DNA from: Pseudomonadota bacterium
GTDB lineage: Bacteria > Pseudomonadota > Gammaproteobacteria > JAKAQQ01
Length of the DNA stretch: 64,000 nt
Assembly (NCBI GenBank): GCA_027320085.1
Contig: DAHVLZ010000010.1
Location: 1-64,000, forward strand
Direction: 5' to 3'
The notes beneath the pieces are model-generated. The model searched no databases. It saw nothing but the letters and a program-made list of their open reading frames with translations, and was not told the origin of the DNA. Positions 47,125 through 64,000 of this stretch are shown here, piece after piece (the stretch's first letter is position 1; every line of letters begins with the position of its first letter). The position numbers and the translations under genes are program-made.

Positions 47125-47180
47125 TTATCACCACTGCATCCGTCCGAGTCGGGTGAGCAAGGTGGGGAGGTGTGACGCGG

Positions 47181-47732
47181 CTATCGTGGCTTGAGAACGA
47201 CAATGTGGACCCTGCTCCCCTTGCGCAACTCTTTGGCAAATCGGTTCTCCACACGATTACCGGGGCCAAATGCGGCTGAGTACCGAGCACCCGAGGAATA
47301 GTCAAAGAGAACAAGTATGACAACCTTGTAGTAGTGCGAATACAGTAGGGACTGGCTCAGCCCCTCTTTCCAGCGGGCCTTTGCAAATTGATCATTGAGT
47401 TTCTTGCACTCAATAGCGCAGAGCGGGTATTTGCCCGAGCCTCGCAGAAGACACTCAGGTCGAAACTTTTCCCCTACAAATTTGGCGGGTGTGATATTTC
47501 TGTTCTCGATACTGAGATTGCGTTGCAGGAGGTAGTTAATGAGAAAAGCATTGAGCCTTGTCTCCCCAAGTTTTTTTTGCTGCGGGAGGATTCTGAATCC
47601 CTTTATCTCTTTTAGAACGGCACCAAACTGGCCCGCTTCCAATTTTCCCATGCGCCTTTGAGCGGCTCTTTTTCTTGCCACTGTGACTCCCTTATCAGTT
47701 GACTCGCCGAACTGATGGACACAGACAGTCAA
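47181..47732 (-). CDS. hypothetical protein, possible PD-(D/E)xK nuclease (start may be 47651)
   Basis: Low-GC ORF; E..RPE..AIECK..Q...Y pattern. Confidence 0.55.
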   Translation of the reverse strand: MTVCVHQFGESTDKGVTVARKRAAQRRMGKLEAGQFGAVLKEIKGFRILPQQKKLGETRLNAFLINYLLQRNLSIENRNITPAKFVGEKFRPECLLRGSGKYPLCAIECKKLNDQFAKARWKEGLSQSLLYSHYYKVVILVLFDYSSGARYSAAFGPGNRVENRFAKELRKGSRVHIVVLKPR

Positions 47733-48001
47733 TTTACCCCAAAGAATGTCCGGAACGCGGCTCTAGAACTATCGTCCTGACGCCTATCTTGTGTCGCTTT
47801 CGGCACATCTCGTCAATGGGTTCGACGATGCTAAAGGAAATTTGGTTCTGTTGAAAACGGAGTTGGTAACACCGCCACGTCACGGTTGATCCGTGGGAAG
47901 ACGAGCTGGCCTGCGATGAGGATGATGAGCATGCGGACGGTGGGGAAGCAACCATACCCAGGTGTGTTTTATCCACATCTTCATCGCACGGGTGGGGTTC
48001 G

Positions 48002-48090
48002 ATGGGAGTGCGAGAACGATTTGAGCGGTATCTGGGACATCTGGCGACAGCGCTGGGACACACCGACCGGGTCGCCGGGCTCGGAGCGTG
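48002..48090 (+). mobile_element. IS701-family transposase N-terminal relic
   Basis: RFERYLGHLATALGHTDRVAGL. Confidence 0.6.
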
Positions 48091-48093
48091 GTC

Positions 48094-48208
48094 ACCTCCC
48101 ACTCATGGGCGGCCTTGAGCTCGTGAATTTTCTGGTTCGAAAAGACCCCGGAAAGGCCTTCGTGCTTAAAGCCCCCTCTCGTTTTTGTCTAGATTTCTGG
48201 GTCCATCA
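48094..48208 (-). mobile_element. second, more deleted copy of the IS3-family element
   Basis: Near-identical to 45578-45645 joined to 45790-45836. Confidence 0.75.
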
Positions 48209-48406
48209 TACAAAGCGCTCGGCCATCGGATTCAGTGTCAACCACCCCGGCTCGCCGGCGAGCCGCACGTCCCGGGCGATGCCGCCGTCCCCGGCCCGGG
48301 ACAAAACTACCTCACCGCGATCATCGAGTTTTATCCTTCGGCCGGTTGATGATGCTGGCGCCGATAGCGCCGAATGCCGGAGATCCGGCTTGTCGGGCGA
48401 GGCAGA

Positions 48407-49609
48407 TCAGCCTTTCCTGAAGCGGGCGGCTTCTTCCGAGCCCGCGGTGGCGTTGCCGGCGCTGTAGGAGTGCGCTCCCGCGCCGGCAAGCCGGCCTCCG
48501 TCCACAATCAGGTACTCATTCCGGATCGGCCGGTTCTCGAAGAAGCATTCCAGGATTTCCCGGGTTCCGGCCGCATATCGGGCTTGAGCCGACAAGGAGG
48601 TGCCGGAGGTGTGGGGCGTCATGCCGTGGTGCGGCATGGTCCGCCAGGGGTGATCCCCCGGTGCGGGCTGCGGGAACCAGACATCGCCGGCGTAGCCGGC
48701 CAGTTGGCCCGATTCCAGCGCGCGCACGACCGCCTCGCGGTCACAGAGCTTGCCGCGCGCGGTATTCACCAGATAGGCGCCGCGCTTGAACCGCTTGAGC
48801 GTCTCGTCGTTGATCATGTGCTCGGTTTCGGGATATAGCGGGCAATTCAAGGTGACCACATCGCAGGCCCCATACAGGTCTTCCCGGGAGGCATGCCAAG
48901 TCAAGCCCAGTTCCTTTTCAACCGACTTCGGGAGGCGATGGCGATCGGTGTAGTGGAGGTGCACATCGAAGGGCTTGAGGCGCCTGAGCACGGCAAGTCC
49001 GATGCGGCCGGCAGCGACTGTTCCCACATGCATGCCCTCCACGTCATAGGAGCGGGCAACGCAATCGGCAATATTCCACCCTCCTTTCACGACCCATTGA
49101 TAGGACGGGATGTAGTTGCGCACAAGGCCCAGGATCATCATGACCACATGCTCGGATACCGAGATCGAATTGGAGAACGTCACCTCGGCCACGGTGATGC
49201 CACGATCAATCGCAGCCTGCAGGTCGACATGGTCCGAGCCGATACCCGCGGTGATCGCGAGCTTGAGCTTCGGGGCCTTGGCAATCCGCCCGGCCGTCAG
49301 GTAAGCCGGCCAGAACGGCTGCGAGATGACGACATCCGCATCCCCCAACTCGCGTTCGAATACGGAATCCGGCCCATCCTTGTCGGAGGTCACAACCAGA
49401 GTGTGACCCTTGGATTCCAGATATTTGCGCAGCCCGAGTTCACCCGAGACACTGCCGAGCAGGACACCCGGCTGGAAGTCGATGGCCTTGGGCGTGGGCA
49501 GCGTCTGGCCGTCGGGGTAGCGGGTCAGTCTCGGCACACCCTCGCGCGCATAGGATTTCGGGTAGCCATCGACCGGATCGTCATAGAGAACACACACAAC
49601 TTTGGCCAT
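48407..49609 (-). CDS. fdh: NAD-dependent formate dehydrogenase
   Basis: SQPFWPAY, AGIGSDH, AAGRIG, YTDRH, GDVWFPQP, PHTSG. Confidence 0.96.
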   Translation of the reverse strand: MAKVVCVLYDDPVDGYPKSYAREGVPRLTRYPDGQTLPTPKAIDFQPGVLLGSVSGELGLRKYLESKGHTLVVTSDKDGPDSVFERELGDADVVISQPFWPAYLTAGRIAKAPKLKLAITAGIGSDHVDLQAAIDRGITVAEVTFSNSISVSEHVVMMILGLVRNYIPSYQWVVKGGWNIADCVARSYDVEGMHVGTVAAGRIGLAVLRRLKPFDVHLHYTDRHRLPKSVEKELGLTWHASREDLYGACDVVTLNCPLYPETEHMINDETLKRFKRGAYLVNTARGKLCDREAVVRALESGQLAGYAGDVWFPQPAPGDHPWRTMPHHGMTPHTSGTSLSAQARYAAGTREILECFFENRPIRNEYLIVDGGRLAGAGAHSYSAGNATAGSEEAARFRKG

Positions 49610-49649
49610 TTCATTTCCTCCTCATGGCGAAGAACTCTTCATCAGGCAC

Positions 49650-49770
49650 CGCCCCGACAGGTCAATGCGCAAAAAGCGCATAAACGGGGGCCGATCGGTT
49701 ACCTCAGGGTCCAGCGCCCCGTCCGAGAACCCATACCCGTTCCGCAAGACAGACACCTGGACATCAGCCG
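49650..49770 (-). mobile_element. IS5-family transposase fragment
   Basis: VLRNGYGFSDGAL..VTDR..FMRFL. Confidence 0.6.
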
Positions 49771-49894
49771 ATTGAATGTCCATGTTTTCATTGTAACAAA
49801 ACCTTCCCGAGCACATCCCTGTGGGCCGATTTTTTCGTATGGTCTTCCTTTTGCTCCAGCCTCCTCCAATGCATGAGCCTGACCGGGGATCGTG

Positions 49895-50092
49895 ATTCCA
49901 AGGAGACGGTGCCCCCGATGCCCCCGCGACAGGGCCTGGCCGGCTGCGCCGAAAGACACGCCTCGATATCCCTCAGGCTTTTCCGACAGGTCAGCTGCGC
50001 GAAGACAGGCTTGCCGGCGTACATGGCGATCTCCCGAATAAGTCGGGAAAGTCTGCCGGAGGGGGACGGTTTTATTCCAAAGCTAGCCACCA
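49895..50092 (-). mobile_element. IS4-family (DUF4372) transposase N-terminal relic
   Basis: MYAGKPVFAQL..TCRKSLRDIEACL. Confidence 0.7.
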
Positions 50093-50097
50093 AGGCT

Positions 50098-50130
50098 TTC
50101 ACGTCCTGGCATCAATCGTTGCAGCCCGGA
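50098..50130 (+). repeat. 33-bp direct repeat, copy 2
   Basis: TTCACGTCCTGGCATCAATCGTTGCAGCCCGGA. Confidence 0.9.
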
Positions 50131-50141
50131 CAGGCCGATCC

Positions 50142-50236
50142 ATCGTTTCAATATTCGTGAAACGATATCTTGACGATAGGAGAAAACATATATATCTTAA
50201 TAAGATAATCGTTTCAGTCTTTGGAAAATCGTTTCA
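50142..50236 (+). promoter_or_regulatory. operator array upstream of the second fic gene
   Basis: ATCGTTTCA at 50142, 50208 and 50228, inverted copy at 50158; AT-rich. Confidence 0.65.
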
Positions 50237-51537
50237 TGGCATTCACCGACCAAGCCCTTCTTGATTATGTCGCCGCCCATCCCGGCGCGGGCCGGGAGGA
50301 CATCAGGCGCCACATCGCACCCGATGTGAGCGCGCCGACGATCTGGCGCGCGCTCAAGCGCCTGGCCGATGAAGGCAAGCTGGAAGTCTCGGGAAGGGGC
50401 CGCGCCACGGGCTACAGCCTGGCGGGCGCCGCCGTGGTGCGCGCCCACCTACAAACGCCCTACAACCGCCGGCGGCCCACGACCCATAACAGAGAGTTTC
50501 TCGACCGCTACATTCCGAACAGGAGCTTCTATCTCGGCGCTGCCGAGCGGGCGCGGCTGCATGAGACCGGCCGCCCTGAGCCACAGCGGCTGCCCGCCGG
50601 CCCCTATGCGCGCCGCATCCTTGAGCGGCTCCTTGTGGATCTGTCCTGGGCGTCATCGCGTATGGAGGGCAATACCTATGACATCCTCGAAACAGAGCGG
50701 CTGATCCGTTTCGGCCAGGAGGCCGCCGGCAAGGATCGCCGGGAAGCGGTCATGATCCTCAATCACAAGGAAGCGATCCAGTACGTCGTCGAGCATCTCG
50801 CCGACATCACCATCAGCCGCCCTGACCTGTTCAGCATTCATGCCTTGCTCGCCGACGGCTTGCTTGCCGATCCCGCAATGGGAGGACGGCTGCGGTGGAT
50901 GCCGGTCGGCATTTCCTATTCGAGCTACAGGCCGCAGGCTGATCATTTCGCGATCGAGGAAGAATTCGACATACTGGTGCAGAAGGCGGCGGCGATCACT
51001 GATCCGTTCGAGCAATCCTTCTTCCTGCTGGTCCACATCCCGTATCTACAGCCGTTCGAGGATGTCAACAAACGGACTTCGCGCATTGCCGCCAACATCC
51101 CGTTGCTCAAGGCCGGCCACGCCCCTATGTCGTTTTTGACCCTGAACGACGCTGATTATCTTGACGGGCTGATCGGCGTGTACGAGTTGAACAACGTCTC
51201 GCTGTTGCGCGGCGTGTATATCGACGCCTACCTGGCCTCCGCCGAAAACTACCAGGTGCTGCGCGCCGAGCTTGAGAGCCCGGAGAAAGCGTCGCTTGCC
51301 TACCGTGATTTTGTACGCGCGGCTGTACGCCGCAGCGTACTCGAATGGAAGGCGTTTCGGCCGGACTCGGTGATGGCCATGGCCACCGATGCCGGCATTC
51401 CGGAGGCCGACCGCGAGCAGGTCGTCAACTATATCGGCCAGGAGTTCCGGGGCCTTCACGATGGCAATGTCATCCGCTACCGACTGCGCCCCGAGGACCT
51501 TGCCGAGATGGCGCGCGAGCAGGCGGGACAACGATGA
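50236..51537 (+). CDS. Fic family protein, N-terminal wHTH, non-canonical motif
   Basis: SSRMEGNT, LNHKEA, QPFEDVNKRTSR. Confidence 0.9.
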   Translation: MAFTDQALLDYVAAHPGAGREDIRRHIAPDVSAPTIWRALKRLADEGKLEVSGRGRATGYSLAGAAVVRAHLQTPYNRRRPTTHNREFLDRYIPNRSFYLGAAERARLHETGRPEPQRLPAGPYARRILERLLVDLSWASSRMEGNTYDILETERLIRFGQEAAGKDRREAVMILNHKEAIQYVVEHLADITISRPDLFSIHALLADGLLADPAMGGRLRWMPVGISYSSYRPQADHFAIEEEFDILVQKAAAITDPFEQSFFLLVHIPYLQPFEDVNKRTSRIAANIPLLKAGHAPMSFLTLNDADYLDGLIGVYELNNVSLLRGVYIDAYLASAENYQVLRAELESPEKASLAYRDFVRAAVRRSVLEWKAFRPDSVMAMATDAGIPEADREQVVNYIGQEFRGLHDGNVIRYRLRPEDLAEMAREQAGQR

Positions 51538-51547
51538 GGTTTCCCGA

Positions 51548-51583
51548 GCTTCAATGAGGCCGCAGCAAATCACTGCGGAATAT
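51548..51583 (-). CRISPR. solitary CRISPR-like repeat (type I-G/I-U-like); no array or cas genes in the window
   Basis: ATATTCCGCAGTGATTTGCTGCGGCCTCATTGAAGC: 36 nt, CCGCAG/CTGCGG stem, ATTGAAGC 3' handle. Confidence 0.75.
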
Positions 51584-52313
51584 TTGATGACGAAATACAA
51601 CAAATGTGCGGCCTTGGCCTCGATGCTCGGATACGCCGGCTCGCCGAACGCGCTCTGGTCAAGATTCCCCAGGATGGATTCAAGCCCTGCCTTGTGCTCC
51701 TGCCCGAACAATCCGCTGGCTTCGCGGCGCGCGATCAGGTCCCGCTTGAGCACCTCAATGCCGGCATGGGCCTCGGCAATGCCGGGCAACACACCGCCGG
51801 CGGTTCCTTTCGGCTCGGTCAGCAGCCCTTCGTCGTAGCGCTGCAAAAGCAAAAAGGTCCGGGTATAGCAGGCGATGACATCGACCAGGCCGCGGTCCTG
51901 GTCGCCGGTGAGCGCCTCGCGTCCGGCGGTCTTGCGGATGAGCACGAGCGCTGCCTCCAGTTCCCGCGCCTTCTGCTCGAAACGCCGACGATGGACAGTG
52001 TAACCCTGCGTGAGATGCTCTTTGAGGATCTGGGTGGCCCAGATGCGGAACTGGGTACCGCGTTTCGACTTGACGCGGTAGCCGACGGAGATGATCACAT
52101 CCAGGCTGTAAAAGGCGACAGGCTTGTCGGAATTTGCAATGTGCATTTTTTGCACATTGCCATTTTCCTTGAGTTCACTTTCCGCAAAGATGTTCCGAAT
52201 ATGTTTGGTGAGGACAGATCGCCCCCGGCCAGCCGCACGTCCAAGGCGGTCCGGCCGTCCTCGGTCCGGTACAGGAGCACTTCGCCATGATCTTCGGGTT
52301 TTGCCCGGGTCAT
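51584..52313 (-). pseudogene. RhuM + Fic/Doc protein, frameshifted and truncated
   Basis: YSLDVIISVGYRVKSKRGTQFRIWAT; homology ends at KAAHLLYFVIK, before the expected NHPF.DGNKR. Confidence 0.85.
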
Positions 52314-52833
52314 GGTTTTGCCTTCCTGATCGGGCTTGGGCCCATGGTGGACATCGCTTGATCCAGCCGCTGCATGAAATTCCGCTTGGCCCTGTGTCTG
52401 GCCCGCACGACGTCGGGCCACGCTGCGAACCCCCTTTCCTGTTTTGTGCGACGCGTCAAGTTGCGGACCCTAACTATGAGGGCGACGGCTTCATCATAGG
52501 CGGGGTTATTCTTTTGCTCAACGATGCCATTGAGGCGGTTACGGTAGATTTCCGCGGCGTCGGCGGGGTGATTCCTTTCGCGCGCCCGGGCGAGAGCAAA
52601 CCACAGGTCTTGCGTGCAACCACCGGGCAGGTGCAGGAGTAGCCGAGTCGTTTGCCCTCCGCCCAGAGTTGCACGGCGTATTCGTCGCCGCCCCCGACGC
52701 GCGCGTTGATCGTCTCATCCGTCACCACAAGATCGATCACGGCGCCCGGCTCGAAATAGGCGTGACCACGCGCGTAGGCGAGGTCGCCCGCTCCGGTCCG
52801 CAGGACGTTTTCGGTGATCACACCGTTACGCAT
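52310..52833 (-). pseudogene. SWIM zinc-finger protein with internal deletion
   Basis: YARG..YF, YSCTCP joined out of frame to C-terminal LWFALARARE..AYDEA..RAKRNFM. Confidence 0.7.
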
Positions 52834-52975
52834 CCCTCAGTTTCCTGTTGTTCCAGTATCGGCTGGGGAGCCTTGTCCCATGATAACGCCGAAAGGGGAC
52901 AAGCCCCTGTCCCTGGAAATCTCAGAGCCGGATCCTCCACCCGGCGGTGCCGGCCGTGCAGAATCCGGGCCGGGC

Positions 52976-54619
52976 TCATCCGGGCCCGGCGGACATCCAC
53001 CCGGGACCGGACGGTTCCCGGTCCGGACCCCGCAGGCGATCTGCGGCCGGCAGCCGGGCGAGTTCCCGTTCGGGGAGCCTTTGCCAGCTGCGCGAGACGA
53101 GAAAGGTGTCGCGCACCTCGTCCCGGAGCCAGTGGACCTCGGTGCCGCACCGCCGGAGATGATCGAGCCCCCGCAGGCGGAGCAGTCCGTATTCGCGCCG
53201 CGGCCACTCGACGAGCACCAGGGTGAGATCCCGTTCCCGGGCCCATTCCCGGGCCGCCTCGAGTGCGGAAATCCCCATCCGGCGCGGCAGGTAGAACAAA
53301 AGACAGCGGGATTCCGGCCGGAGGGGGTTCTCCGGCCCCTCGCCAAGGAGGAGGCAGGGGAGCCGGAGCCGTCCCGGGCGCAGCGGAGCCGCCCCGGTGG
53401 GATCGCAGGATCCCAGACGGGACAGCAGGTCGCGCCCGTTTCCCCAGCACAGGTAGAACGCCGGAGCCGCCGGACCGCCCGGGGATGGCCGGTCCGGACA
53501 TTCGTGCCAGTCGCTGCCAAAACAGAGGCTCCGACCCCACCGGCCCTCGGATGGAACCGTCCTCTCCTCAAGGAGCGGTGGGAGCGCGGCCCTGAAGGTG
53601 GCCGCATCCATCCGGCCCACGGCTCTGGAAAAGAGCCGCCCGTAGACCTCGATCCGGCGGAACGACCCGTATTCGGCACCGAGTTCGCGCACAGTCTCCC
53701 CGACGAGCCCGGCCAGATCGAAGGGCTGAGACACCCCAGGTTCCCCCGGGGCCCGCCAGGGCGCCGCGGGCACCCGATCCGGCTGGATGCGACCGTACTC
53801 CTCACGCCAGCGACCGGCGATCTCGACCCACGAGGAAGCGGTCTTGGGCGGACGGGTGTGCAGGGTCAGGTACTGTTTTTCGCCCAGGGTCGCGAAATCC
53901 CGGGAGGACCCGGTGTGGGCGAGCGCCTGCTCGACCGCGTGGCTCCGTTTGGACCAGAGCGCAAGCAGGCGTCCGGGAATCTCCCCGATCTCGAAGGCGT
54001 GGGGGGTCGGCCGGATCGTATAGCCGAGCCCGGCAACGCGTGCCGCCAGATCGAGCCGGTAGTAGCCACCGAGGAGTTTCGCGGCATTGAAGAGAAAAAT
54101 GCGGTCGAGCGCGCGGAAGGGCCCCTCCGGGGTTGCCGTGAAATTGAGGATGACGCTGTGGGTATGGAGCTGCGGATCGGCCAGGCGCGACAGTCCATGC
54201 CGGAAGGTTGCGATCAGAAGTCCCGCCCCCGCCACGGCCACCGTGTTCCGGCCGATGTGCTTCTGGAAATAACAGTGTTCCGCCTCAATCCAGGACAAAG
54301 CCTCGCGGACGGACTGGTCGTGCGCATCGACCAGGCGGCGATCCCCCCAGACCAAGGCGGCAATCGAGACCGACTTCGGTGCACTGAAGGTGGCATCCAC
54401 GCCGCGCACGGTGGTCCCGGCGGGCCCCCGGGTTCCGCCGGGCAGGCGGCCTTCCAGCACCTCCCTGAAAACCGTGGGATCGACCGGCGGGACCAGTCTC
54501 CAGGCACGCGCCCATTGCCCGTCCCAGCCACTCGAGAGACGGGACTCGACCGTGAGATCGTCAATCGCAAAGTAATGCTGCACATGGGCCGCATCGCGGA
54601 TGATGCGGAAGCTCAGCAC
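52976..54619 (-). CDS. MOBF (TrwC-like) relaxase with degenerate helicase region
   Basis: MLS start, DATFSAPKSVS, H.LSRLADPQLHTH, WSKR; no Walker A seen. Confidence 0.87.
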   Translation of the reverse strand: MLSFRIIRDAAHVQHYFAIDDLTVESRLSSGWDGQWARAWRLVPPVDPTVFREVLEGRLPGGTRGPAGTTVRGVDATFSAPKSVSIAALVWGDRRLVDAHDQSVREALSWIEAEHCYFQKHIGRNTVAVAGAGLLIATFRHGLSRLADPQLHTHSVILNFTATPEGPFRALDRIFLFNAAKLLGGYYRLDLAARVAGLGYTIRPTPHAFEIGEIPGRLLALWSKRSHAVEQALAHTGSSRDFATLGEKQYLTLHTRPPKTASSWVEIAGRWREEYGRIQPDRVPAAPWRAPGEPGVSQPFDLAGLVGETVRELGAEYGSFRRIEVYGRLFSRAVGRMDAATFRAALPPLLEERTVPSEGRWGRSLCFGSDWHECPDRPSPGGPAAPAFYLCWGNGRDLLSRLGSCDPTGAAPLRPGRLRLPCLLLGEGPENPLRPESRCLLFYLPRRMGISALEAAREWARERDLTLVLVEWPRREYGLLRLRGLDHLRRCGTEVHWLRDEVRDTFLVSRSWQRLPERELARLPAADRLRGPDREPSGPGWMSAGPG

Positions 54620-54638
54620 ACGAGCCTCCGTCCCGACT

Positions 54639-56087
54639 TCACCAAGGCACTCCGACGTCCACAACCGGAAACTCCACCGCTTGCAGCCGGGGTCGTGGCT
54701 GGAAGGCCTGGGTGACCTCCGGTCGCTCGCGGGGCTTGAGCCGGATGGGCCGGATGGGATGGTCCCCGGCCAGGGCCAGATATCCCCTGCAGTCGCGGAG
54801 TGCCTGGATTTCACCGGGCAGGATCAGGCGCTCGAACTGCCGCCGGTCGGTATGCGACGCGCCGCCCCGTCCGTGGGACCACTCGCGCACCACGATCTCA
54901 CGTTCGCCGAGTTCACGGCTCAGGGTCTCGGCGGTACCGGCCTCCTGCGTGCGGAGGACCAGAAGCGATCCGAAGCAGGATCGGAGAATACGCGCACCCG
55001 TGCGACCGTAAGCCTCGTCCAGCTGGCTCACCGACTGGACACCCGCAAGACAGGAAAGCCCGTATTTGCGTCCCCGGGTCAGCGCATCGGTGAGGACCGG
55101 GATCGTACCCAGGGCCCCGAGTTCGTCCAGAACGATCCAGAAGCGCCGCCCCCGCTCCGGCCGCTGGGAGAGGATCCCGCCCACGGCCAGGTCGATCCAG
55201 GCCGCAAGGAGCGGTCTCATCAGGGCCAGCTGGTCGTCCCGGTAGGGCAAAAACAGCCATCCCCCATCGGTCCCGGTTGCCCAGCGTCGCACCGAAAAAC
55301 TGCCGGCATCCGCCATGGGGTTGAGAAAACGGTAGGGCGCGAGGTAGGTCCCGACGATGGCCCGGACCGAGCCCAGCATGCGTTCGGCCCCCTCTTCGAA
55401 GAGGGCGTGGGCCGGATGGCCGGTGACCTGGGCGGCCAGATCCGCGTTGGAAGAGCGCGTGAGCGTCTCGACCAGCGTGCCGGTCGCAGTCTGGCCCGTC
55501 TCCCACAAGCGTCCCATCACGGCCGCGACGAGCGATTGCGCGTAGTGGTGCCATTCGGCCTCAGCCGCGCCGCGGGTCGGGACAAGGCTCCGGGCAAGAC
55601 GTTCGACATCCCAGGCTGCGGTCATCTCCGCAAGCGGCGCCCAATCGACCGAGCGTTCATCCACGGGATTGAGGATCCGGTCTCCCTTCCGGTGGAAGCG
55701 GGACAGGAAATCGCCTCCGCAATCGGCCACGAGGACACGGTCACCCCGCCGCCGCAGGATCTCGAGGCAATCGGCCAAGGCCACACTCTTGCCGGAGCCG
55801 GGGCTGCCTGCGCAGAGGAGGTGGTAGGGCTCGAGCCGGTGCGGGATCCGGATGCCACCCACGCGCAGCCGGCTCATCCGGGCTGTGGCTTGGGTGAGGC
55901 GGTGCCCCAAGACCCGGAGCCAGGCGACCCGGCCGCGCCCTGCGATCTGCCGGCCACGCGAATGGCGACGTCCCGGGCGTGAGCGGCCGAATGGGAAAAA
56001 ACCGCCTCCCGGCAGGCTGCGCCGGATCAGGATCAGGCCCAAGAAAAAACCGCCCAGTGCGGCTGTGCCGATTCCGATTTCCCCCAT
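54639..56087 (-). CDS. type IV coupling protein (TrwB/TraD-like)
   Basis: HLL.AGSPGSGKS, NPVDERS, LDELGAL, RGRKYG, QSVSQL..YG, LGERE. Confidence 0.9.
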   Translation of the reverse strand: MGEIGIGTAALGGFFLGLILIRRSLPGGGFFPFGRSRPGRRHSRGRQIAGRGRVAWLRVLGHRLTQATARMSRLRVGGIRIPHRLEPYHLLCAGSPGSGKSVALADCLEILRRRGDRVLVADCGGDFLSRFHRKGDRILNPVDERSVDWAPLAEMTAAWDVERLARSLVPTRGAAEAEWHHYAQSLVAAVMGRLWETGQTATGTLVETLTRSSNADLAAQVTGHPAHALFEEGAERMLGSVRAIVGTYLAPYRFLNPMADAGSFSVRRWATGTDGGWLFLPYRDDQLALMRPLLAAWIDLAVGGILSQRPERGRRFWIVLDELGALGTIPVLTDALTRGRKYGLSCLAGVQSVSQLDEAYGRTGARILRSCFGSLLVLRTQEAGTAETLSRELGEREIVVREWSHGRGGASHTDRRQFERLILPGEIQALRDCRGYLALAGDHPIRPIRLKPRERPEVTQAFQPRPRLQAVEFPVVDVGVPW

Positions 56088-56183
56088 CCTTTCGCTCCCA
56101 CGGACCGCACCCTGCAGGGTAGGGCCTCAACCACAACGCCCGGGGGGACTCCCCGGGTACCGGACGCCCGGCCGACTACGGCT

Positions 56184-56564
56184 TCAAGGCGAGATGGATG
56201 CGGCCATTTCGCCCAGGATCGGACCGATGACCGCGGCAAACTCAATCTTGTTGACGAAACCATCGACCCCGATTTCCTGTGCCCGCTCGCGGTACTCGGG
56301 ATCGTCGTACAGCGTGATCAGAACCACCTTCGGGGAATCCGCCTTCTGCTTGAGTGCCTCAGCCGCACCCAGCCCGCCGATACCCGGCATGGCCACATCG
56401 AGTAGCACGACATCAGGCCGCAGGGATTCGCACAGGCTCAAGGCCTCCTCACCGGATCGGGCCAGTCCCACGACCTGGACCCCCGGCTGGGCGGCAAGAA
56501 GGCTCGCCACCGATTCGACGAAGAGCGGGTGGTCATCCGCAACCAGGACTTTAAGTCGACTCAT
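56184..56564 (-). CDS. single-domain response regulator (NarL-type receiver)
   Basis: VADDH, VLLDVAMP, FVNK. Confidence 0.9.
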   Translation of the reverse strand: MSRLKVLVADDHPLFVESVASLLAAQPGVQVVGLARSGEEALSLCESLRPDVVLLDVAMPGIGGLGAAEALKQKADSPKVVLITLYDDPEYRERAQEIGVDGFVNKIEFAAVIGPILGEMAASISP

Positions 56565-56629
56565 CCAAGCCTGCTCCTTCTTCCAGCCTGTTGATCGTAT
56601 ACGATTTTCACGGATTAGTCAGCCTCGCG

Positions 56630-58033
56630 TCAGGCTTGAGTCTGGCCATCGGCCACGACTTGAGCGCTAACTCCAGAGATTTCCTTTGGATTTTCGATCT
56701 GGGAAGATTTTTCAGACCCCACGGGTCCTCCCGAATCCTCACCGGAGGCCTGGGTGAGCGCAAAGACCATGGCAATGGTCGTCCCCCGTCCGGGGGCACT
56801 CACCAGGTCGAAATGCCCTCCCGCGAGCTGAACCCGCTCCTCCATGCCCAAAAGCCCGAGACTCGAGCCTCCCTGGACCTTGCGGCGCATTGTCTCCACA
56901 TCAAAGCCGCGACCATCGTCCCGGATCGTGACGCGGAGTTCGTCTCCCTCGACCCGGAATGCGAGTTCGACCTTGATGGCCCCGGCATGACGGGCGATGT
57001 TGTTGAGCGCTTCCTGGACCACGCGGTAACAGGTAATTTCGACAAGCGGGGGGAAACGCGGATCGGCGGGGGGCAGATCGAGTGTCAGCTTGATGCCCGA
57101 CAACGTGGCCATCCGGCTGCCCAGACCGCGGATGGCGGCCACGAGGCCCAGATCATCGAGCAGTGAGGGATGCAGGTTGAGCGACAGGCTGCGGACCTGG
57201 GTGAGCACCCGGTCCAGATTGGCCACGAGTTCCTCGTAGAGCTTTTCACGCCGGCTCAGCTGGAACAGATCGGACATGGCATGGAGTCCGAGCTTGGTCG
57301 CCGTGAGTGTCTGGCCCACCTCGTCGTGGAGCTCGCGGGCCAGGTGACGGCGCTCGTTTTCCTGGGTCTCCAGGAGTTTGCGCGACAGAAGCCTGAGGCG
57401 TTCGGCGTATTCGATCACGGCTTTCTGCACGGTCCGGAGCGCCGTCACATCCCGGGCGATGCCCACGCTGTAATCACGTCCTTCCCATTGGATGAGGTAA
57501 CGGTAACCCTGGACCCAGCGCCACCCGCCATCGGCCATGGCCACACGAAACTCGCTCAAGGGGTAACGGTGCCAGTCCCCGATCCGCTCGAGGTCGACCG
57601 GGTGGATGAGGGATCCCGGATGGCGGTTGCGCAGGGCCTCGGGTTCGAAGCCAAGCAGCGTCTGGTGCGAAGGACTCAGGTACTCCATCTGGCCATCGAG
57701 ACTCGCCATGCTGATCAGGTCCACGGAGTTCTCGGCGATCAGCCGGAACTTGAGAGCCTGCTCCTGCTGGACGCGGCGGATCCGTTCCCGCCGCCGAAGG
57801 TCGCCCTGGAAGCGCTTTTCCTCCTGTACGACGATCAGGGTCGAGAGCAGGATGAAAAGGGCCATGAAGCCGGCCAGGGTTTCGACCGCCGGATCGTAGG
57901 CGTGGGGGCCGAACAGGGTATGGACGATGATCCCGGCCAGAACCAGCCAGACGAGCCCAAGACCCAGATAGCCCAGGGCAATCCGCCAGACCGCCTTTGA
58001 CCCGATACGGGGTTCGCGGGGATTGGTCTTCAT
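56630..58033 (-). CDS. PAS sensor histidine kinase (HisKA_3)
   Basis: Two TM helices, PAS, ARELHDEVGQ, QEALNN, DDGRGF, GLLGMEER. Confidence 0.92.
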   Translation of the reverse strand: MKTNPREPRIGSKAVWRIALGYLGLGLVWLVLAGIIVHTLFGPHAYDPAVETLAGFMALFILLSTLIVVQEEKRFQGDLRRRERIRRVQQEQALKFRLIAENSVDLISMASLDGQMEYLSPSHQTLLGFEPEALRNRHPGSLIHPVDLERIGDWHRYPLSEFRVAMADGGWRWVQGYRYLIQWEGRDYSVGIARDVTALRTVQKAVIEYAERLRLLSRKLLETQENERRHLARELHDEVGQTLTATKLGLHAMSDLFQLSRREKLYEELVANLDRVLTQVRSLSLNLHPSLLDDLGLVAAIRGLGSRMATLSGIKLTLDLPPADPRFPPLVEITCYRVVQEALNNIARHAGAIKVELAFRVEGDELRVTIRDDGRGFDVETMRRKVQGGSSLGLLGMEERVQLAGGHFDLVSAPGRGTTIAMVFALTQASGEDSGGPVGSEKSSQIENPKEISGVSAQVVADGQTQA

Positions 58034-58563
58034 CGACCCGTCCCTCCTTCCGTCTCCAGCATACTCCCACCGCCCCGCCGGATGGAAAAGAATTCCTGGA
58101 GAAGCCGGCGGGAGGGTTCGGCGCGGATCCCGCCCGTGACCGTGAGATGATGGTTGAAGACCCAGCCGAGCTGCCCGGAGGAAAGCCGTTCGACGGCGCC
58201 GAAGCGGGGATCGGATGCGCCGTAGACGAGACGCCCGATGCGGGCCAGCATGAGCGCACCCAGACACATGACGCAGGGCTCGAGGGTGACGTAGAGCGTG
58301 GTTCCACCAAGCCGGTAGTTGCCGATCCGGCGCGCCGCCTCCCGGAGCACGCCGATCTCGGCATGCGCGGTGGGATCCGCCTGGCTGATCGGGGCGTTGC
58401 CGGCCGCAGCAAGGCACTCCCCTTCGCGGACGAGGACGGCGCCGACCGGTACCTCGCCCGCCTGGCGCGCGCGTTCTGCCCACTCGAGGGCCCTATCCAT
58501 CCACGCCTCATCCTGGATCGGATCCACCGCCTTGACCTGTTCAATGGTCAACGCGGTCTCCAC
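58030..58563 (-). CDS. tadA: tRNA adenosine(34) deaminase
   Basis: GEVPVGAV, DPTAHAE, NYRL, LEPCVMC, FNH. Confidence 0.95.
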   Translation of the reverse strand: METALTIEQVKAVDPIQDEAWMDRALEWAERARQAGEVPVGAVLVREGECLAAAGNAPISQADPTAHAEIGVLREAARRIGNYRLGGTTLYVTLEPCVMCLGALMLARIGRLVYGASDPRFGAVERLSSGQLGWVFNHHLTVTGGIRAEPSRRLLQEFFSIRRGGGSMLETEGGTGR

Positions 58564-58974
58564 GGACTGACGAGAGGACTCGTCTTGAGACTGTACCGGA
58601 AACCATCAAAGACCTCATGCCCCGTGATGCGATGCACGCGGGAAACCCCTGACCAGACCGGTCCATCCGACCAGGATCAAGACCGTAGCGAAACAGTGTT
58701 CTCACGATGCTGACCGGAATCATACGCCCAACGCTCTGGTCGAGTGAGCCCCCCCTTTGGTTGAGGACAGCCTGAGGTGCGTGGCGAGTGGGCACCGGGT
58801 GATGATCATCACAGGTTGGGCCCGGGGTGTTGGAAGCATTCGGCGGAAACCGCAGGGACAGCGACGCGCCGCTGGGCATTGGCTGTCCGAAAGCGGGCGA
58901 GCGCACCACTCGGCATCACACGCCCCGCGCAAGACTCCGGAGGCGCGCAATGACGGACCGGCTGACGGAGACAT

Positions 58975-59200
58975 GTAAGCATCCTCCCGTAGCGGCAACG
59001 AAAGGGAGACAGGGATGGCTTTTTCCCAGCCGAGCCAACTCTCGTCATATCGAAAGCGAATCGTGCCGCCCGGCTCCTTAAGCAGCTGGCCAACCAGGCG
59101 ATTGTTGAGAGAGACATGCAGGGGCACATGCTTCCGACGGCGCGGCATCAGAAAAAATCCTCGAGGGTGGCCGCTTGGTCCTTGGGTCGGGGGGTCAAGC
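58975..59200 (-). pseudogene. hipBA relic (HipB C-terminus plus HipA N-terminal 58 aa)
   Basis: KDQAATLEDFF* overlapping MPRRRKHVPL.V.LNNRLVG..FRYDESWL..SLSLPLREDAY; homology then lost. Confidence 0.75.
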
Positions 59201-59452
59201 GCAGAACCCCCACCACTCAACACGACCCGCCGTGCGCTTGGTTTCGGGTGGGCAACCGTTTACCGGCATTGATCAGGGCTTCCCGGATCAAGAAATCGGG
59301 GGCTGCCGCTCCCCTGACTATCGCCAGCATCTGCACGATGAGCAGCACGAAGTAAATGAAACGATCGTTCAGGATCATATGCTCGCAAGCTTGAGCAAAA
59401 CCACATCAAATGGAATAATGGGTGGCGACCCGTAAACTGGGGAATTTGATTC

Positions 59453-59830
59453 ATGGGCGAAGCACTTGTTCAGACGCTTTCCATGCTTGAGACCGAACTC
59501 CAGAAACCCCGGATCCGCAGTGAGAATGATCCTGCAGCCGCGCTTCTCCACCCTGATTTCGAAGAGGTCGGGCGATCCGGGCGACGCTACACCCGCGAGG
59601 CTGTCGTTTCCGCCCTGTCGGGCAAACGCCACTCCGATGCGGTAATCGCAGACTCGTATGCCGCAACTGAGTTAGGCCCGGGCGTTGCACTCCTGACCTA
59701 CCATTCGGCACACAAGGGGAAAAACGGGGCTCTCACGCGGCACACGCTGCGTTCCTCGATCTGGATCCTGATCGGTGACAACTGGCAACTGCGCTATCAC
59801 CAGGGGACAGCTGCTGCTGAACACGGGTAA
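59453..59830 (+). CDS. DUF4440 / NTF2-like protein
   Basis: LLHPDFEEVGRSG, LRSSIW, WQLRYHQGT. Confidence 0.85.
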   Translation: MGEALVQTLSMLETELQKPRIRSENDPAAALLHPDFEEVGRSGRRYTREAVVSALSGKRHSDAVIADSYAATELGPGVALLTYHSAHKGKNGALTRHTLRSSIWILIGDNWQLRYHQGTAAAEHG

Positions 59831-59893
59831 TGGATCAGCGTGTGCTACGCTGGCCTCGTCTCCATGCTGCCTGCCCAGGTGACGCTTTCAATC

Positions 59894-60370
59894 ATGAACA
59901 CAAACGCTTTCGCGCCCACCACCCGCGCACACACCTCGGAAACCTTTCAGTTCCACGTTCCCGCGCCAATGGCCGTCGCCTTTCCACTGTTCGGTGCTCA
60001 CTGCGAACGGCAGTGGGCACCGGACTGGGAACCCGAGTTCATCTGGCCGTCACAGCCAACTGACCGCAGTGGCATGGTGTTCACTGTCGCGCACGGTGCG
60101 CGACAGGCGATCTGGGTGAACACCGACTTCGATCCCGTTGCCGGCCATGTTCGGTACATCTCTGTGCTGCCAGAGGTCATGACGACAGTCATCACGCTGC
60201 AACTGCGCGAACATGAGGCGGGGACCCACGTAGAGGTACGCTATGAGCGCACGTCTTTGAACGCGGCCGCCGACGAACGAGTCCGGGAGTTGGCGCGGGA
60301 AGACGCACAGGCCGGCCCGGAATGGGCCAGCCAGATCGCAAAGCACCTGGCCGATCGACCCGTCCGCTGA
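59894..60370 (+). CDS. hypothetical SRPBCC-like protein
   Basis: FPLFG..ERQWAPDWEP, V.YERT.L. Confidence 0.7.
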   Translation: MNTNAFAPTTRAHTSETFQFHVPAPMAVAFPLFGAHCERQWAPDWEPEFIWPSQPTDRSGMVFTVAHGARQAIWVNTDFDPVAGHVRYISVLPEVMTTVITLQLREHEAGTHVEVRYERTSLNAAADERVRELAREDAQAGPEWASQIAKHLADRPVR

Positions 60371-60860
60371 GCCCCACGCCTCGAGCGGGCGGCCACGGGG
60401 CCTCTGGTGTCAGCCGAACAGTTCGCTGTGCGAGCCTATCCGGGCCCGCCGCTGGGTGTTGGAATCGGATTTTCGGTAGATCACGAGCAGGCCGGTCGTT
60501 ACATGATGACTAGCCCGCCCAGTCGCCCGAAAGGTCACAATCGCGGTAGCGCGTATTGAGGCACTGATATAAAGATACGCACTCTGGGGTGGCCGGCCCA
60601 GTCCATTGCCTCAGGAAACGGCGCATAACGGGCTCATCTGTCTCCAGTGCCTGTGGGCCCCGCCATGGCCAAACGTCGGATCATCCCCGATTGTCAACGA
60701 TGAATATATCTATTTGAAATAGAGATGGTTTTTCAGATCCCGACGCAGCGATACCATGCTCAATACCATGAGCCCAGGACCACTTGGACTGCTCGTCAGA
60801 GATGGATGACTCTCGCTCGCCACGGGAGTTTGCATTCGCCCTGCAATGGAGATACACTGA

Positions 60861-60886
60861 AACTTGTACTATTAAATGTACAAGTT
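60861..60886 (+). promoter_or_regulatory. yefM-yoeB operator palindrome
   Basis: AACTTGTAC-N8-GTACAAGTT with a TGTAC core like known YefM operators. Confidence 0.7.
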
Positions 60887-60939
60887 CAGCCGTTCACTGA
60901 CTGCTGACTACCAGGCGAATTGAATGAACGGAGTAAAAA

Positions 60940-61239
60940 ATGAGAATCGTCAACTTTTCTGAAGCTCGCAACAGCTTACGGGCTGTTATCGACCAAGTGG
61001 TTGAGGATGCTGACGTAACAGTCATCTCGCGCAGAGACGCACCTGACGCCGTGGTCATGTCCCTCAATCATTACAACAGCCTGATGGAAACCGTGCATTT
61101 GTTGAGTTCACCTGCAAATGCGGCGCATCTTGCCAAATCCATTTCGCAGGCTCGTGCAGGTCAAGCGAAGCATCGGGAATTAGTCAACATTTCCGGCGCC
61201 GAGGACCCGCAAAATGCGCAACCTGAAGTTCACGGATGA
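60940..61239 (+). CDS. yefM: Phd/YefM antitoxin
   Basis: NFSEARNSL, YNSLMETVHLLSSPANA. Confidence 0.92.
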   Translation: MRIVNFSEARNSLRAVIDQVVEDADVTVISRRDAPDAVVMSLNHYNSLMETVHLLSSPANAAHLAKSISQARAGQAKHRELVNISGAEDPQNAQPEVHG

Positions 61240-61471
61240 GGCTTGGGAAACCTACCTCTTCTGGCAAACACAGGATAGAAAGACGCTTAAACGCATCAAT
61301 GATCTGATCCAAGCCGCCCTAAGAGATCCTTTCGGCGGCATGGGGAAACCCGAAGCACTCAAACACAGCCTGAGCGGATGCTGGTCACGGCGAATAGATG
61401 AAACCAACCGGCTCGTCTACGAAGTCCAAAATGATGAGTTGGTCATCATTTCGTGCCGGTATCGCTATTGA
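61214..61471 (+). CDS. yoeB: Txe/YoeB toxin
   Basis: GKPEALKH.LSG.WSRRI...RLVY, CRYRY. Confidence 0.93.
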   Translation: MRNLKFTDEAWETYLFWQTQDRKTLKRINDLIQAALRDPFGGMGKPEALKHSLSGCWSRRIDETNRLVYEVQNDELVIISCRYRY

Positions 61472-61546
61472 AATTAGAAGGGTAGAAGGGGAACTGGCCG
61501 CTCCCCCTTTTCCCCCGCACGGAATGCTTCAAGCAACTTTAAATTC

Positions 61547-61561
61547 TCACTCCCACTCGAT
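61547..61561 (-). other. att site: duplicated guaA 3' end
   Basis: ATCGAGTGGGAGTGA = IEWE-stop, the GuaA C-terminus, in non-coding context. Confidence 0.72.
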
Positions 61562-61563
61562 CA

Positions 61564-62346
61564 TCAACGGCGACGATATGCCACTGAATCGCAAGGAAAA
61601 TCTCTAGCCCCTGGCGGGTTTACCCTGAACCTCCCCACGGCTAACGCCCATTGATCCGGCCAGGGCTCGAGATCGTCATCGAGAAATACACTGTTGCCTT
61701 GGTCACGCGGCACTTTTTGCAGCGGCAAGGCGATGAGGTTTCCGAACCCGCCTTGCGGCAGGAAGTCCTGGTTCGGGAAGAGGCGGTCGTAGGAATCCAG
61801 TCCGACGTCCGGCCTGCGTTCCATGGTCTCTGTCAGCAGAGAGGAACCGAGCCGTCTGGCCATTGCCGCTGGTCTCGCCCCCTCGAAAAACAGCCAGACA
61901 TGTCCGCCCCGCCCGGAGCGCGACCGCTCGAACGCAGCCGGCAGGTGCATGCGGCAGCAGGTTTCGAGAAAGGCTTTCGCGTCTTCGCTCCACTCGACCT
62001 TGTCAAAGTCGACCGCCCGAAAGGCGCAGGTTTCGTCCTGGAACAGCGGGTAGCCCCCGGCGACGAAGGGTTCGCCATCAGGGTCGCAACCGGACAGGTG
62101 CCAACGGATGACGTCGTCGGTCAGCGGAAGAAATCGGCGGTGGGGACAGTCCGCGCATTTGACACGCGGCTTTTCGCAGACCCCGCGTACCCATTCGTTG
62201 GCACAAACGGGGGCGTAGCCCGACTTGCCGGTCCTCCTGCTTTCAAATCGCCTCGCGTACACGTCGGCGCGGACGCGGAACAACGGACGAAAGAGCGCGA
62301 TCTTGGCCGCCGGCAATGAAGTTCGGTCGACCATGCTGGACTTCAT
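61564..62346 (-). pseudogene. TOTE conflict-system AEP primase domain, truncated before the helicase
   Basis: KSGYAPVCANEW, AVDFD, ERSRSG.G.HVW, DRLFPNQD, GNLIALPLQ; homology ends near 61640. Confidence 0.8.
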
Positions 62347-62352
62347 TGTTCA

Positions 62353-63307
62353 CTAACTTCCCGGCACCGGCGGTTCGCCAGCGCCAGACGCCGGGGTGGC
62401 AAACCTCGCGGCCAGCGCATCGGTCTGCTCCGCGAACCTCTTCGCATCGGTCTTCTGCAACTGCGCCAGATTGTGCAACTTCCAGCGGATGCCCGGCAGT
62501 TGTTCAAGGTGCGCGATGTCCAGCAGCGACCAGTCCGGCGTGCCGGCTGCCAGCGACAGCAGGAAACGCCGCTCCTTGTCGTCCAGTCCCAGTTCGATTT
62601 CGCGCACCACTCGCTCTCGCGCTGCGAGCAGTGCATCGAGCGGCACCGGCTCGGCCGTCATGCCCTGGAAATTGTTCTCGTAGTCGTGCCGAATATCCCG
62701 CAGGGGCGGGAACAGCAACTCGTGGATTGGCCGGTTGCTGCAGGCCAAATAGACCACGAAAGCGCGGCGGATTCCGGGCGTGATGCCCTCGTTCGCAAAG
62801 AGCTGCATCACGTCGAACAAGTCGCGTGGGTGTTGCCGATCCAGCGCCGCCACCAGCTTGCCGCCGTACGCGTCTTCCAGTGACACGACCGGGATTTCCA
62901 TATCGGCCATCAACACATCGCGGGCGGCGGGCGTAAGCGAAGCGCGCCGCACCGGTTGCACCGTTCCGCGCATGACGAAGTTGACTCCGGTCTTGATCTG
63001 GATCGAGCCACGGCGCACCAGCAACTTCGTCTCCCCCTTCTGCCGCCGCCGGAACATGCGTCTGGAATCCTCGCTTCCGCAACCGGACAGCGGCTTGCCG
63101 GATGGCATCGCCGATGATTGCGAGAGCCTCGTTACGCGGCCGCCGGTGGTCGGAAAAGACCAGATCGAGATCGACCGACAGGCGCGGCATGTCGCGCACG
63201 AACAGATTGATCGCCGTACCACCCTTCAATGCGAAGGTGCCGTCCACGAACACCAGCGGCGCCACCTGCGTCAGCAGACGCGCGGTATCAAGATAAGTCT
63301 GGTTCAT
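62353..63307 (-). pseudogene. AbiEii nucleotidyltransferase toxin, frameshifted
   Basis: LKGGTAINLF..RLSVDLD in one frame, GGKLVAALDRQHPRDLFD in another; shift at the G5 run 63033-63037. Confidence 0.85.
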
Positions 63308-64000
63308 GGCTTGAGCACGAGCAGACCGTCGGCCGACCGGGACACCCAGGGTCGGTTGCTGCCCTTCGGCAGCGTGCCTGGATCGAGCTTGGCCGCCCAT
63401 GGCGACGAGGCCTCCCGGCCAAGTTGCAGGCACAGCCGCACGGTCTTGACGCTTGAGCAGTGCTGCAACAGCTCGCGCAGCACATCGGCGCGGAGGTTGT
63501 AGGTGCTTTCGATGATTTCGCGAGCTTCCTGCAAGGGCTGGCGCACGCCGACTTCGCTCAACAGTTCCAGCAATGCACGCTCCGGCGCCGACACCTGCGG
63601 CGCCCCGCTGCGCTTCTCGAAAGGGCCGACGTGCAGCAGGGCGTCCGGCTGCTCGTCAAACAGGCGCTTGCGGTGGTATTCGGCCGGAAAGCGTTGGGTG
63701 AACCATTCCGGCAGGCGGGCCGCCTTCCAGCCGTACAGTTGCAGCACGGGATGCTGCGACACGTACTGGCGCACGCCGTACCAGTCGAGGGCCGACTTGC
63801 CGCCGACGTGCATCCCTTGGATTCCGCGCTGCAACTGCAGCAGGCTGGGATGCAGGGCCGGGGCGTCATTCGGGCGGCCATACACCCCCCGGGACAGGCG
63901 CATGAGCCAACCCGCCCGGACGTAGTGGACGGCCAAGTCTGCGGAGATGCCGAGCGCCGCCAGGTCCTCTGAGGTCAGCGGTGTTCCCGGCGCCAGCCGA
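63304..64000 (-). CDS. AbiEi antitoxin (5' end outside the window)
   Basis: GWL.RL.RGVY, HVGGKSAL, SAPERALLE, SVKTVRL. Confidence 0.88.
   Translation of the reverse strand, partial: RLAPGTPLTSEDLAALGISADLAVHYVRAGWLMRLSRGVYGRPNDAPALHPSLLQLQRGIQGMHVGGKSALDWYGVRQYVSQHPVLQLYGWKAARLPEWFTQRFPAEYHRKRLFDEQPDALLHVGPFEKRSGAPQVSAPERALLELLSEVGVRQPLQEAREIIESTYNLRADVLRELLQHCSSVKTVRLCLQLGREASSPWAAKLDPGTLPKGSNRPWVSRSADGLLVLKP

Follow-up and report, generated by a model that had tools for sequence, protein, structure and literature searches.

A chromosomally fixed coupling protein and relaxase pair in acid-mine-drainage Gammaproteobacteria and its probable link to a Trb-type secretion system

Introduction

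What is the task of a conjugation-type coupling protein and relaxase that lie in a bacterial chromosome, in a gene run headed by a housekeeping gene and without a transfer channel encoded beside them? The question is raised by a stretch of 64,000 nucleotides (hereafter the window), which comprises the first 64 kb of contig C45 (DAHVLZ010000010.1) of the metagenome-assembled genome G000 (GCA_027320085.1; 2.14 Mb, 47 contigs, 96% complete). In this window, a gene for a type IV coupling protein (T4CP) of the TrwB/TraD type (482 amino acids, positions 54639-56087, minus strand) is followed by a gene for a TrwC-type relaxase (548 amino acids, GTG start, positions 52976-54619, minus strand). The host is a member of a family of uncultured Gammaproteobacteria from acid mine drainage, with small genomes of about 2 Mb. 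All family genomes compared are metagenome bins, and the genera are labelled g1, g2 and g3 in the following.

Conjugation genes in chromosomes are usually selfish and short-lived, and the 'domesticated' type IV secretion systems (T4SSs) known to us mostly lack a relaxase. We read the pair in the window as one half of a conjugation-type machine, responsible for DNA processing and coupling, with a Trb-type T4SS as the other half; the machine would have become fixed, would be inherited vertically and would lie scattered in the chromosome. The probability of this reading is put at roughly 55%. Both halves are intact, present in single copy and found throughout the family, and they co-diverge with its genera. 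Ratios of nonsynonymous to synonymous substitution rates (dN/dS), which were computed for the pair and not for the T4SS genes, show purifying selection on the T4CP and the relaxase. A relaxase and a T4CP would thus have been kept under selection together with a channel since before the split of three genera, in genomes of about 2 Mb that leave little room for ballast.

The Coupling Protein and the Nicking Domain of the Relaxase

The T4CP matches the Pfam profile PF10412 (TrwB_AAD_bind) with an E value of 3.9e-96 and covers profile positions 2-387 of 387. Its Walker A (GSPGSGKS) and Walker B (LDE) motifs are invariant in nine of nine family sequences, and residues 5-22 of the translation form a hydrophobic stretch, a candidate N-terminal membrane anchor. 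No further T4CP is encoded in G000. Exactly one T4CP above the Pfam cut-off was found in nine of the ten family genomes, and the remaining one (G007) has a second, weak one. All T4CPs of g1 and g3 terminate in the tripeptide VPW (window positions 54639-54660), and those of g2 differ and carry a cysteine-containing extension. In F TraD, the C-terminal tail is the binding site of an accessory protein, and by analogy the VPW end may be a docking motif.

The HUH trans-esterase domain of the relaxase comprises residues 1-290 (positions 53750-54619, minus strand) and was assigned by three kinds of match. PF08751 (TrwC) is hit with an E value of 1.3e-56, the NCBIfam MobF equivalog NF041492 with 190.8 bits (cut-off 100) and TIGR02686 with 153.7 bits (cut-off 145.5), and TrwC of plasmid R388 (PDB 1omh) aligns with an E value of 1.2e-35. 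In the last alignment, Tyr16, Asp75 and His141/152/154 fall on TrwC Tyr18, Asp85 and His150/161/163, respectively, and the tyrosine, the aspartate and the three histidines are invariant in all eight family relaxase sequences. The relaxase of the window is the only TrwC-type relaxase of G000, and PF03432 relaxases were found in none of the ten family genomes.

The second tyrosine of motif I is absent. The DDYY motif reads DDL(T/M) in the family and DDLT in the window, and among 121 homologues, the corresponding column holds Tyr in 109, Leu in nine, Trp in one and a gap in two. The nine Leu-bearing homologues are exactly the proteins of about 550 amino acids that belong to the family. An initial annotation, made from the letters of the window, had described a retained HUH metal site and Tyr16 together with DDLT in place of DDYY, and the 1omh alignment bears this out. 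According to a 2025 review (PMC12857230), MOBF relaxases have up to four motif-I tyrosines, two of which are required for efficient transfer, and their C-terminal helicase domain is needed for transfer as well. Judged by sequence, the family relaxase departs from the MOBF family on two defining features, the tyrosine pair and the helicase.

A Type IV Secretion System on a Second Contig

An intact operon for a Trb/VirB-type T4SS is present on contig C44 of the same genome (positions 18050-27213, minus strand). In the direction of transcription it comprises trbB/virB11 (26146-27213), trbC/virB2 (25811-26149), trbE/virB4 (23000-25690), a trbJ-like gene (22150-23007), trbL/virB6 (21122-22321), trbF/virB8 (20158-20955), trbG/virB9 (19342-20118) and trbI/virB10 (18050-19345), all on the minus strand, and neither a T4CP nor a relaxase is encoded beside it. 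VirB4 was found in ten of ten family genomes, with identities of 76-87% in g1, 54-61% in g3 and 43% in g2, and the Trb operon is syntenic across the relatives. The TGA stops apparent in some of the VirB4 matches precede the true start of TrbE. The contigs of the pair (C45) and of the T4SS (C44) differ, as they do in g2, where each of the two lies amid host genes.

Three conserved orphan genes lie downstream of trbI (C44 13997-18147, loci L022 and L023), namely a gene for a protein of 775 amino acids and two small open reading frames. They are kept with the T4SS operon in g1 and g3, and none of them gave a Pfam, NCBIfam or Atlas lead. They are candidates for accessory or substrate genes of the T4SS. 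In genome G005, contig C30 (locus L126) carries a second, far more distant Trb-type T4SS with a VirB4 of 37% identity, and no additional T4CP was found in that genome.

The initial annotation had stated that no T4SS is present in the window, which is true for the window itself, but the genome has the complete Trb/VirB system on C44. It had further proposed a co-opted, signal-regulated system for nicking or translocation, taken here as a stand-alone module for nicking, recombination or translocation that works without a T4SS and is co-transcribed with tadA and a two-component system. TrwC is known to catalyse site-specific recombination and would be an example of such an activity. However, this proposal is not supported: a complete T4SS that has neither a T4CP nor a relaxase of its own co-occurs with the pair in ten of ten genomes, so that all three parts are found together family-wide, and we know of no role for a T4CP without a channel. 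A stand-alone module is considered quite improbable, also with regard to the neighbouring genes discussed below.

Conservation, Selection and Descent

Eight of the nine other family genomes contain the relaxase, and in the ninth (G009, 73% complete), tadA, kinase, regulator and T4CP are present up to the contig end. Among 31 genomes of other families in the class, two gave a match, both weak. The order tadA-kinase-regulator-T4CP-relaxase is kept, to the extent of the contigs, in six of six g1/g3 relatives. Common flanks are a GST gene (G001, G003, G005) and an amino-acid permease gene (G003, G005) on one side and the gene at C45 64578-67636 (G002, G005) on the other. The T4CP-relaxase pair occurs in all three genera, and its chromosomal site is identical in two of them.

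Pairwise Nei-Gojobori estimates, in which dS is saturated against g3, gave dN/dS values of 0.19-0.24 for the T4CP and 0.23-0.30 for the whole relaxase. Within the latter, values were 0.15-0.26 for the N-domain, 0.28-0.34 for residues 291-547 and 0.17-0.38 for residues 351-547. The corresponding values were 0.17-0.21 for tadA, 0.12-0.17 for the kinase, 0.02 for the regulator and 0.06-0.11 for the GST and permease genes. A relaxase fragment of 37 codons from G007 was left out of these ranges, and the kinase set took in 10 extra upstream codons. In dS, the pair and the flanking core genes are similar. The initial annotation had suggested synteny and dN/dS across related genomes as checks. The pair proved to be present and syntenic in the relatives, with dN/dS of 0.19-0.30 and not near 1, and together with the gene trees and the family-wide presence, these results support its view of a domesticated rather than decaying pair.

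In a T4CP tree of 66 rows, the family formed one clade with the branching order (g2,(g1,g3)) and an SH-aLRT support of 98. In the relaxase tree, 11 family members were separated as one clade from 70 other MobF proteins (SH-aLRT 99), in a nested order of g1, then g1 with g3, then these with g2. As the gene trees of the family mirror its genera, a single loss of the helicase and the second tyrosine is concluded, which predates the separation of the three genera. A scan of 185,579 species, represented by one genome each, confirmed 336 relatives, of which the best 80 loci were kept. Matches of more than 500 residues to the 550-amino-acid form numbered four among these best 80 of 336, and all four were in the family.

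The state of the ancestor can be approached from relatives of the T4CP. A sister clade of the family T4CPs was detected at 46-52% identity and was absent among 12 metagenome loci recovered for T4CP relatives (31-39% identity). A full-length, helicase-bearing MobF relaxase follows the T4CP in three of these 12 loci, and one of the three adjoins VirB4. The ancestor presumably resembled such loci with a T4CP and a helicase-bearing MobF relaxase.

A decaying, functionless remnant of a plasmid or of an integrative and conjugative element (ICE) would fit the loss of the helicase and the second tyrosine and also the broken state of neighbouring mobile genes. This explanation is nevertheless close to refuted. 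Wherever the contigs permit, the open reading frames are intact, which also agrees with their description as uninterrupted in the initial annotation; dN/dS is 0.19-0.30 over a divergence with saturated dS; and the catalytic and ATPase motifs are invariant. Four DNA runs of one study cover the stretch, and none of seven listed indels falls within positions 52976-56087. Among the differences listed for contigs from these four runs (40 of 184), those in the pair were substitutions only.

A still-mobile ICE or integrative and mobilisable element (IME) that is present by chance or has been acquired repeatedly is very improbable. Both flanks of the gene block are island hot spots, with inserts of 9.4 kb and 6 kb in G000, and in G002 an integrase-like stretch lies about 1.2 kb past the relaxase. 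On the other hand, the chromosomal place of the pair is shared by two genera, the branching of its gene trees agrees with the genera, and its dS equals that of the flanking core genes. Among ten matches to the tyrosine recombinase family PF00589 in G000, none was on C44 or C45, so that no integrase accompanies either locus there. The relaxase, the T4CP and the T4SS are not at one locus, and the 550-amino-acid form with matches of more than 500 residues is confined to the family among the best 80 of 336 relatives. Intact reading frames, dN/dS, synteny and gene trees led to the rejection of both a pseudogene or remnant and a recent ICE.

The C-Terminal Part of the Relaxase

In place of the helicase, the relaxase has a helical linker and a lineage-specific orphan domain. 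The linker (residues 291-350, positions 53570-53749, minus strand) was delimited by hhalign with 20 full-length MobF relaxases, in which the alignment was confined to residues 1-349. These residues correspond to the relaxase domain and the helical linker, which in canonical MobF proteins is followed by the helicase. Against the relaxases of g2, the alignment reached residue 344. The orphan domain, or tail, comprises residues 351-547 and the stop codon (positions 52976-53569, minus strand) and was defined by homology searches.

The absence of helicase motifs from the C-terminus, as described in the initial annotation, was confirmed in that neither AAA_30, UvrD_C or Viral_helicase1 nor any other helicase or P-loop family was detected by Pfam in the relaxase. 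The same annotation had aligned the C-terminus by eye with the helicase region. This alignment does coincide with the best local alignment of the tail alone against MobF proteins, on the strand-helix-strand of Walker A, but the homology is not significant (probability 0.07%, E value 0.7). A vestigial helicase is a possible origin of the tail.

Other searches with the tail gave few relatives. By phmmer, residues 290-547 had two matches among 1.84 billion representative proteins, both of them family members. A tail profile gave no match at E values up to 10 among PDB sequences, nor did Pfam on the tails of five family members, and the tail of the window relaxase was not alignable with that of the g2 relaxases. 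The ESM Atlas gave no lead for the tail, with a best feature score of 0.76. A full-length AlphaFold2 model of the relaxase, built from eight sequences, was poor (mean pLDDT 45.4). Its N-domain matched TrwC in Foldseek with an E value of 1e-5, and the possible tail matches in the same search were only non-significant Ras-/FlhF-like rows with E values of at least 0.28. VIA-align on this poor model described residues 299-376 as winged-helix-like with Z scores of 5.6-7.6, a range that is common for the tool, and the linker is possibly the start of a winged-helix-like unit. A predicted complex of T4CP residues 75-482 with the relaxase tail, whose own fold is uncertain, had a score of 0.01 (mark 0.32) and speaks neither for nor against an interaction. 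The tail of about 200 residues is a candidate for a new T4CP-docking or DNA-binding domain.

Possible Function and Comparison with Known Systems

If the pair and the Trb T4SS work as two halves of one machine, the relaxase would nick an oriT-like site in the chromosome by means of Tyr16 and the metal centre of the histidine triad and would remain bound to the 5' end. A hexameric T4CP ATPase would take over the protein-DNA adduct and feed it into the Trb channel, and DNA would be donated to a neighbouring cell or to the medium. Many relaxase families without a helicase of their own rely on a host helicase. Unwinding would here be left to a host helicase as well, since the orphan domain of about 200 residues stands in place of the ancestral helicase, and the tail may retain only a role in docking or DNA binding. 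With one tyrosine, the enzyme would act like the MOBP and MOBQ relaxases and not like TrwC.

By its descent, the pair belongs with TrwB-TrwC of R388. The order of T4CP and relaxase, the N-terminal fold family, the catalytic residues and the TrwB/TraD type of the T4CP are common to both. The Trw T4SS of R388 is VirB-like, and the partner T4SS here is VirB/Trb-like. In contrast to R388 TrwC, which has a helicase and two tyrosines, the family relaxase has one tyrosine and no helicase. Neither a trwA-like gene nor a recognisable oriT was found, and unlike in R388, the pair is chromosomal, vertically inherited and apart from its T4SS.

A single-tyrosine relaxase without a helicase is known from Agrobacterium, where VirD2 pilots DNA via a T4CP through a VirB-type channel. 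The C-terminal part of VirD2 carries targeting signals and has no enzymatic function. VirD2 is a MOBP relaxase with a plasmid-borne gene and with defined border repeats as its target, whereas the family relaxase is derived from MOBF and is chromosomal. Within MOBF, TraI of F/R1 contains a helicase-derived domain that no longer acts as a helicase (PMC6736028). By analogy, the tail might be a relic like this vestigial domain; TraI, however, also keeps an active helicase, and the tail has no demonstrable helicase homology (0.07%).

The nearest functional model for a host-resident set of relaxase, T4CP and T4SS is the gonococcal genetic island (GGI) of Neisseria gonorrhoeae. Its chromosomal T4SS secretes chromosomal single-stranded DNA, for which TraD and TraI are both needed, and the island measures 59 kb, is present in part of the strains and encodes a MOBH relaxase and an F-type T4SS at a single locus (PMC6736028). 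In the present family, by contrast, the relaxase is derived from MOBF, the T4SS is P-type, two loci are involved, every family genome has the set, and ComEC was not found in G000. The rvh T4SS of the Rickettsiales is likewise long resident in small genomes and scattered, an arrangement that Guglielmini et al. 2011 (PMC3158045) describe as relatively rare in proteobacteria. They treat the system as a protein exporter, whereas the present family keeps a relaxase that is apparently active. The literature searched, in which subscription journals were not covered, contained no description of this family or of a chromosome-fixed MOBF relaxase with one tyrosine and no helicase.

Export of proteins instead of DNA has to be considered next to these models. 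The T4SS and the T4CP would then serve to deliver effectors or to kill other bacteria, with the protein derived from the relaxase as a translocated substrate or as an adaptor and without any movement of DNA; the nicking centre of this protein would have been retained for use in target cells or for another DNA transaction. The T4SS is fixed in the chromosome and has no integrase nearby, the loss of the helicase and the second tyrosine fits a move away from processive DNA transfer, and the orphan, fast-evolving C-terminal domain could be a secretion signal or an effector module. The conserved 775-amino-acid orphan gene after trbI points in the same direction. Furthermore, chromosomal T4SSs without a relaxase are commonly read as protein secretion systems (PMC3158045). 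However, the nicking centre is invariant across about 50% sequence divergence and is therefore hard to explain without a DNA substrate. Moreover, the N-domain is more constrained than the tail (dN/dS 0.15-0.26 versus 0.28-0.34), and no recognisable effector or immunity genes adjoin either locus. Protein secretion is thus regarded as rather unlikely.

The reading of the pair and the Trb T4SS as two halves of one conjugation-type machine has several points against it. A T4SS with a T4CP can secrete proteins without any DNA. The assignment of C44 and C45 to one replicon rests on co-occurrence in ten metagenome bins, and the dN/dS values are pairwise estimates for which dS is saturated against g3. 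Neither an oriT nor a nic site was recognisable, no conserved non-coding stretch was present downstream of the relaxase, and no covariation that would point to an oriT was found in a hairpin upstream of the T4CP. The relaxase lacks both the second tyrosine and the helicase, of which the former is needed for efficient transfer and the latter for transfer in the MOBF prototypes (PMC12857230). With regard to secretion for transformation as in Neisseria, ComEC (PF03772) was not found in the 96%-complete G000; DprA is present on contig C21. A cycle of secretion and transformation would therefore be without an evident uptake arm, and delivery from cell to cell is simpler to assume. As for oriT sites, these cannot be recognised by similarity, and their sequences are not conserved even among cross-reacting relaxases (PMC4853378).

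Going beyond the assignment of the two halves, it can be proposed only tentatively, and with low confidence, that the family keeps a working core apparatus for DNA donation, made up of a Trb-type channel, one T4CP and the one-tyrosine, helicase-less relaxase with its new C-terminal domain. Host DNA would be exported either to neighbours, as in high-frequency-recombination (Hfr) strains, or to the medium, as with the GGI, and the kinase and receiver next to the pair might adjust the process. Provided that the relaxase is still able to move DNA, chromosomal genes would be donated by a host-maintained system in an extreme habitat, and these streamlined bacteria, for which G000 yielded no ComEC, would have a route of gene exchange under host control. 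A working enzyme would also be a natural example of a MOBF relaxase stripped to one tyrosine and no helicase. If no DNA is moved, a relaxase would have been recruited to another task.

Neighbouring Genes

The genes for tadA, kinase, receiver, T4CP and relaxase are arranged head to tail, all on the minus strand. The run begins with the housekeeping gene tadA (58030-58563), which encodes the tRNA adenosine(34) deaminase and was assigned by the NCBIfam TadA equivalog (158.4 bits, cut-off 150) and by Pfam cytidine-deaminase domains. It is followed by a gene for a sensor histidine kinase (56630-58033) with the Pfam domains PAS, HisKA_3 and HATPase_c, whose start was set at the Met of MKTNPREP, and by a gene for a receiver-only response regulator of 126 amino acids (56184-56564), in which Pfam found Response_reg over residues 6-106 and no other domain. 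The stop of tadA and the start of the kinase overlap by 4 nt (ATGA), and the remaining gaps are 65, 96 and 19 nt in this order, so that five co-oriented genes with gaps below 100 bp, as initially annotated, are indeed present. The GC content is 0.685 for the T4CP, 0.690 for the relaxase and 0.682 for tadA, and the GC content at third codon positions is 0.72-0.80 across all five genes. The label 'host-like' that had been given to this composition is fair but loose, because the pair matches the housekeeping gene tadA yet exceeds the genome mean of 0.614.

The co-orientation, the short gaps and the five-gene order kept in two genera are what would favour the stand-alone, signal-regulated module mentioned above. 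Kinase orthologues have identities of 67-90% in g1/g3, and the regulator is 91-100% identical there. Against such a module, the receiver has no output domain, a terminator-like hairpin precedes the T4CP, and the linkage is absent in g2, where kinase (about 44% identity) and regulator are encoded at another locus than T4CP and relaxase. A regulation of the pair by the two-component system, as claimed in the initial annotation, is therefore not supported, and the tadA-kinase-regulator neighbourhood is an old adjacency in two genera, not a demonstrated regulatory unit.

In g2, the T4CP-relaxase locus adjoins genes that look like housekeeping genes by eye from the translations. T4CP and relaxase are separated there by a conserved open reading frame of 127 amino acids (L019 4771-5154, L020 1812-2195), which had no family match and no homologue in G000 and is possibly an accessory nicking protein. 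The region upstream of the g2 T4CP had no motif in common with g1/g3.

The hairpin in the gap between regulator and T4CP (56139-56157, minus strand) was found in a scan for terminator-like structures. It is GC-rich, with seven G-C pairs and a T/G-rich tail. A hairpin with such a tail was present 3' of the regulator stop in five of six g1/g3 genomes compared. Comparable hairpins with differing stem sequences occur in G001, G003, G005 and G007, and other GC-rich pairings are found at this place in G002. Among four g1 sequences, none of 21 predicted pairs showed a compensatory change. The hairpin looks like a terminator, could equally be a relaxase-recognition site and might also be an operator. 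In other strains of the same study, small indels were listed at 56109-56142, beside and inside the hairpin, and none in the flanking coding sequences.

Borders of the Gene Block

Each border of the block is a hot spot at which toxin-antitoxin and defence genes are inserted (window positions 43761-52976 and 58563-64000, the latter continuing to C45 64578). The inserts in G000 measure 9.4 kb and 6 kb, and several of their genes are broken, in agreement with the broken mobile genes reported in the initial annotation. Border genes encode two Fic proteins, HepT, YefM/YoeB and AbiEii/AbiEi. Fragments of RhuM, HipA, a SWIM-like protein and a DUF4372 transposase as well as an isolated AEP-TOTE domain were also found; the RhuM match is limited to profile positions 17-71 of 252, and HipA is represented by an N-terminal piece only. 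G001 and G003 are free of these border inserts, and the GST gene lies 380-550 nt from the relaxase stop in these two genomes.

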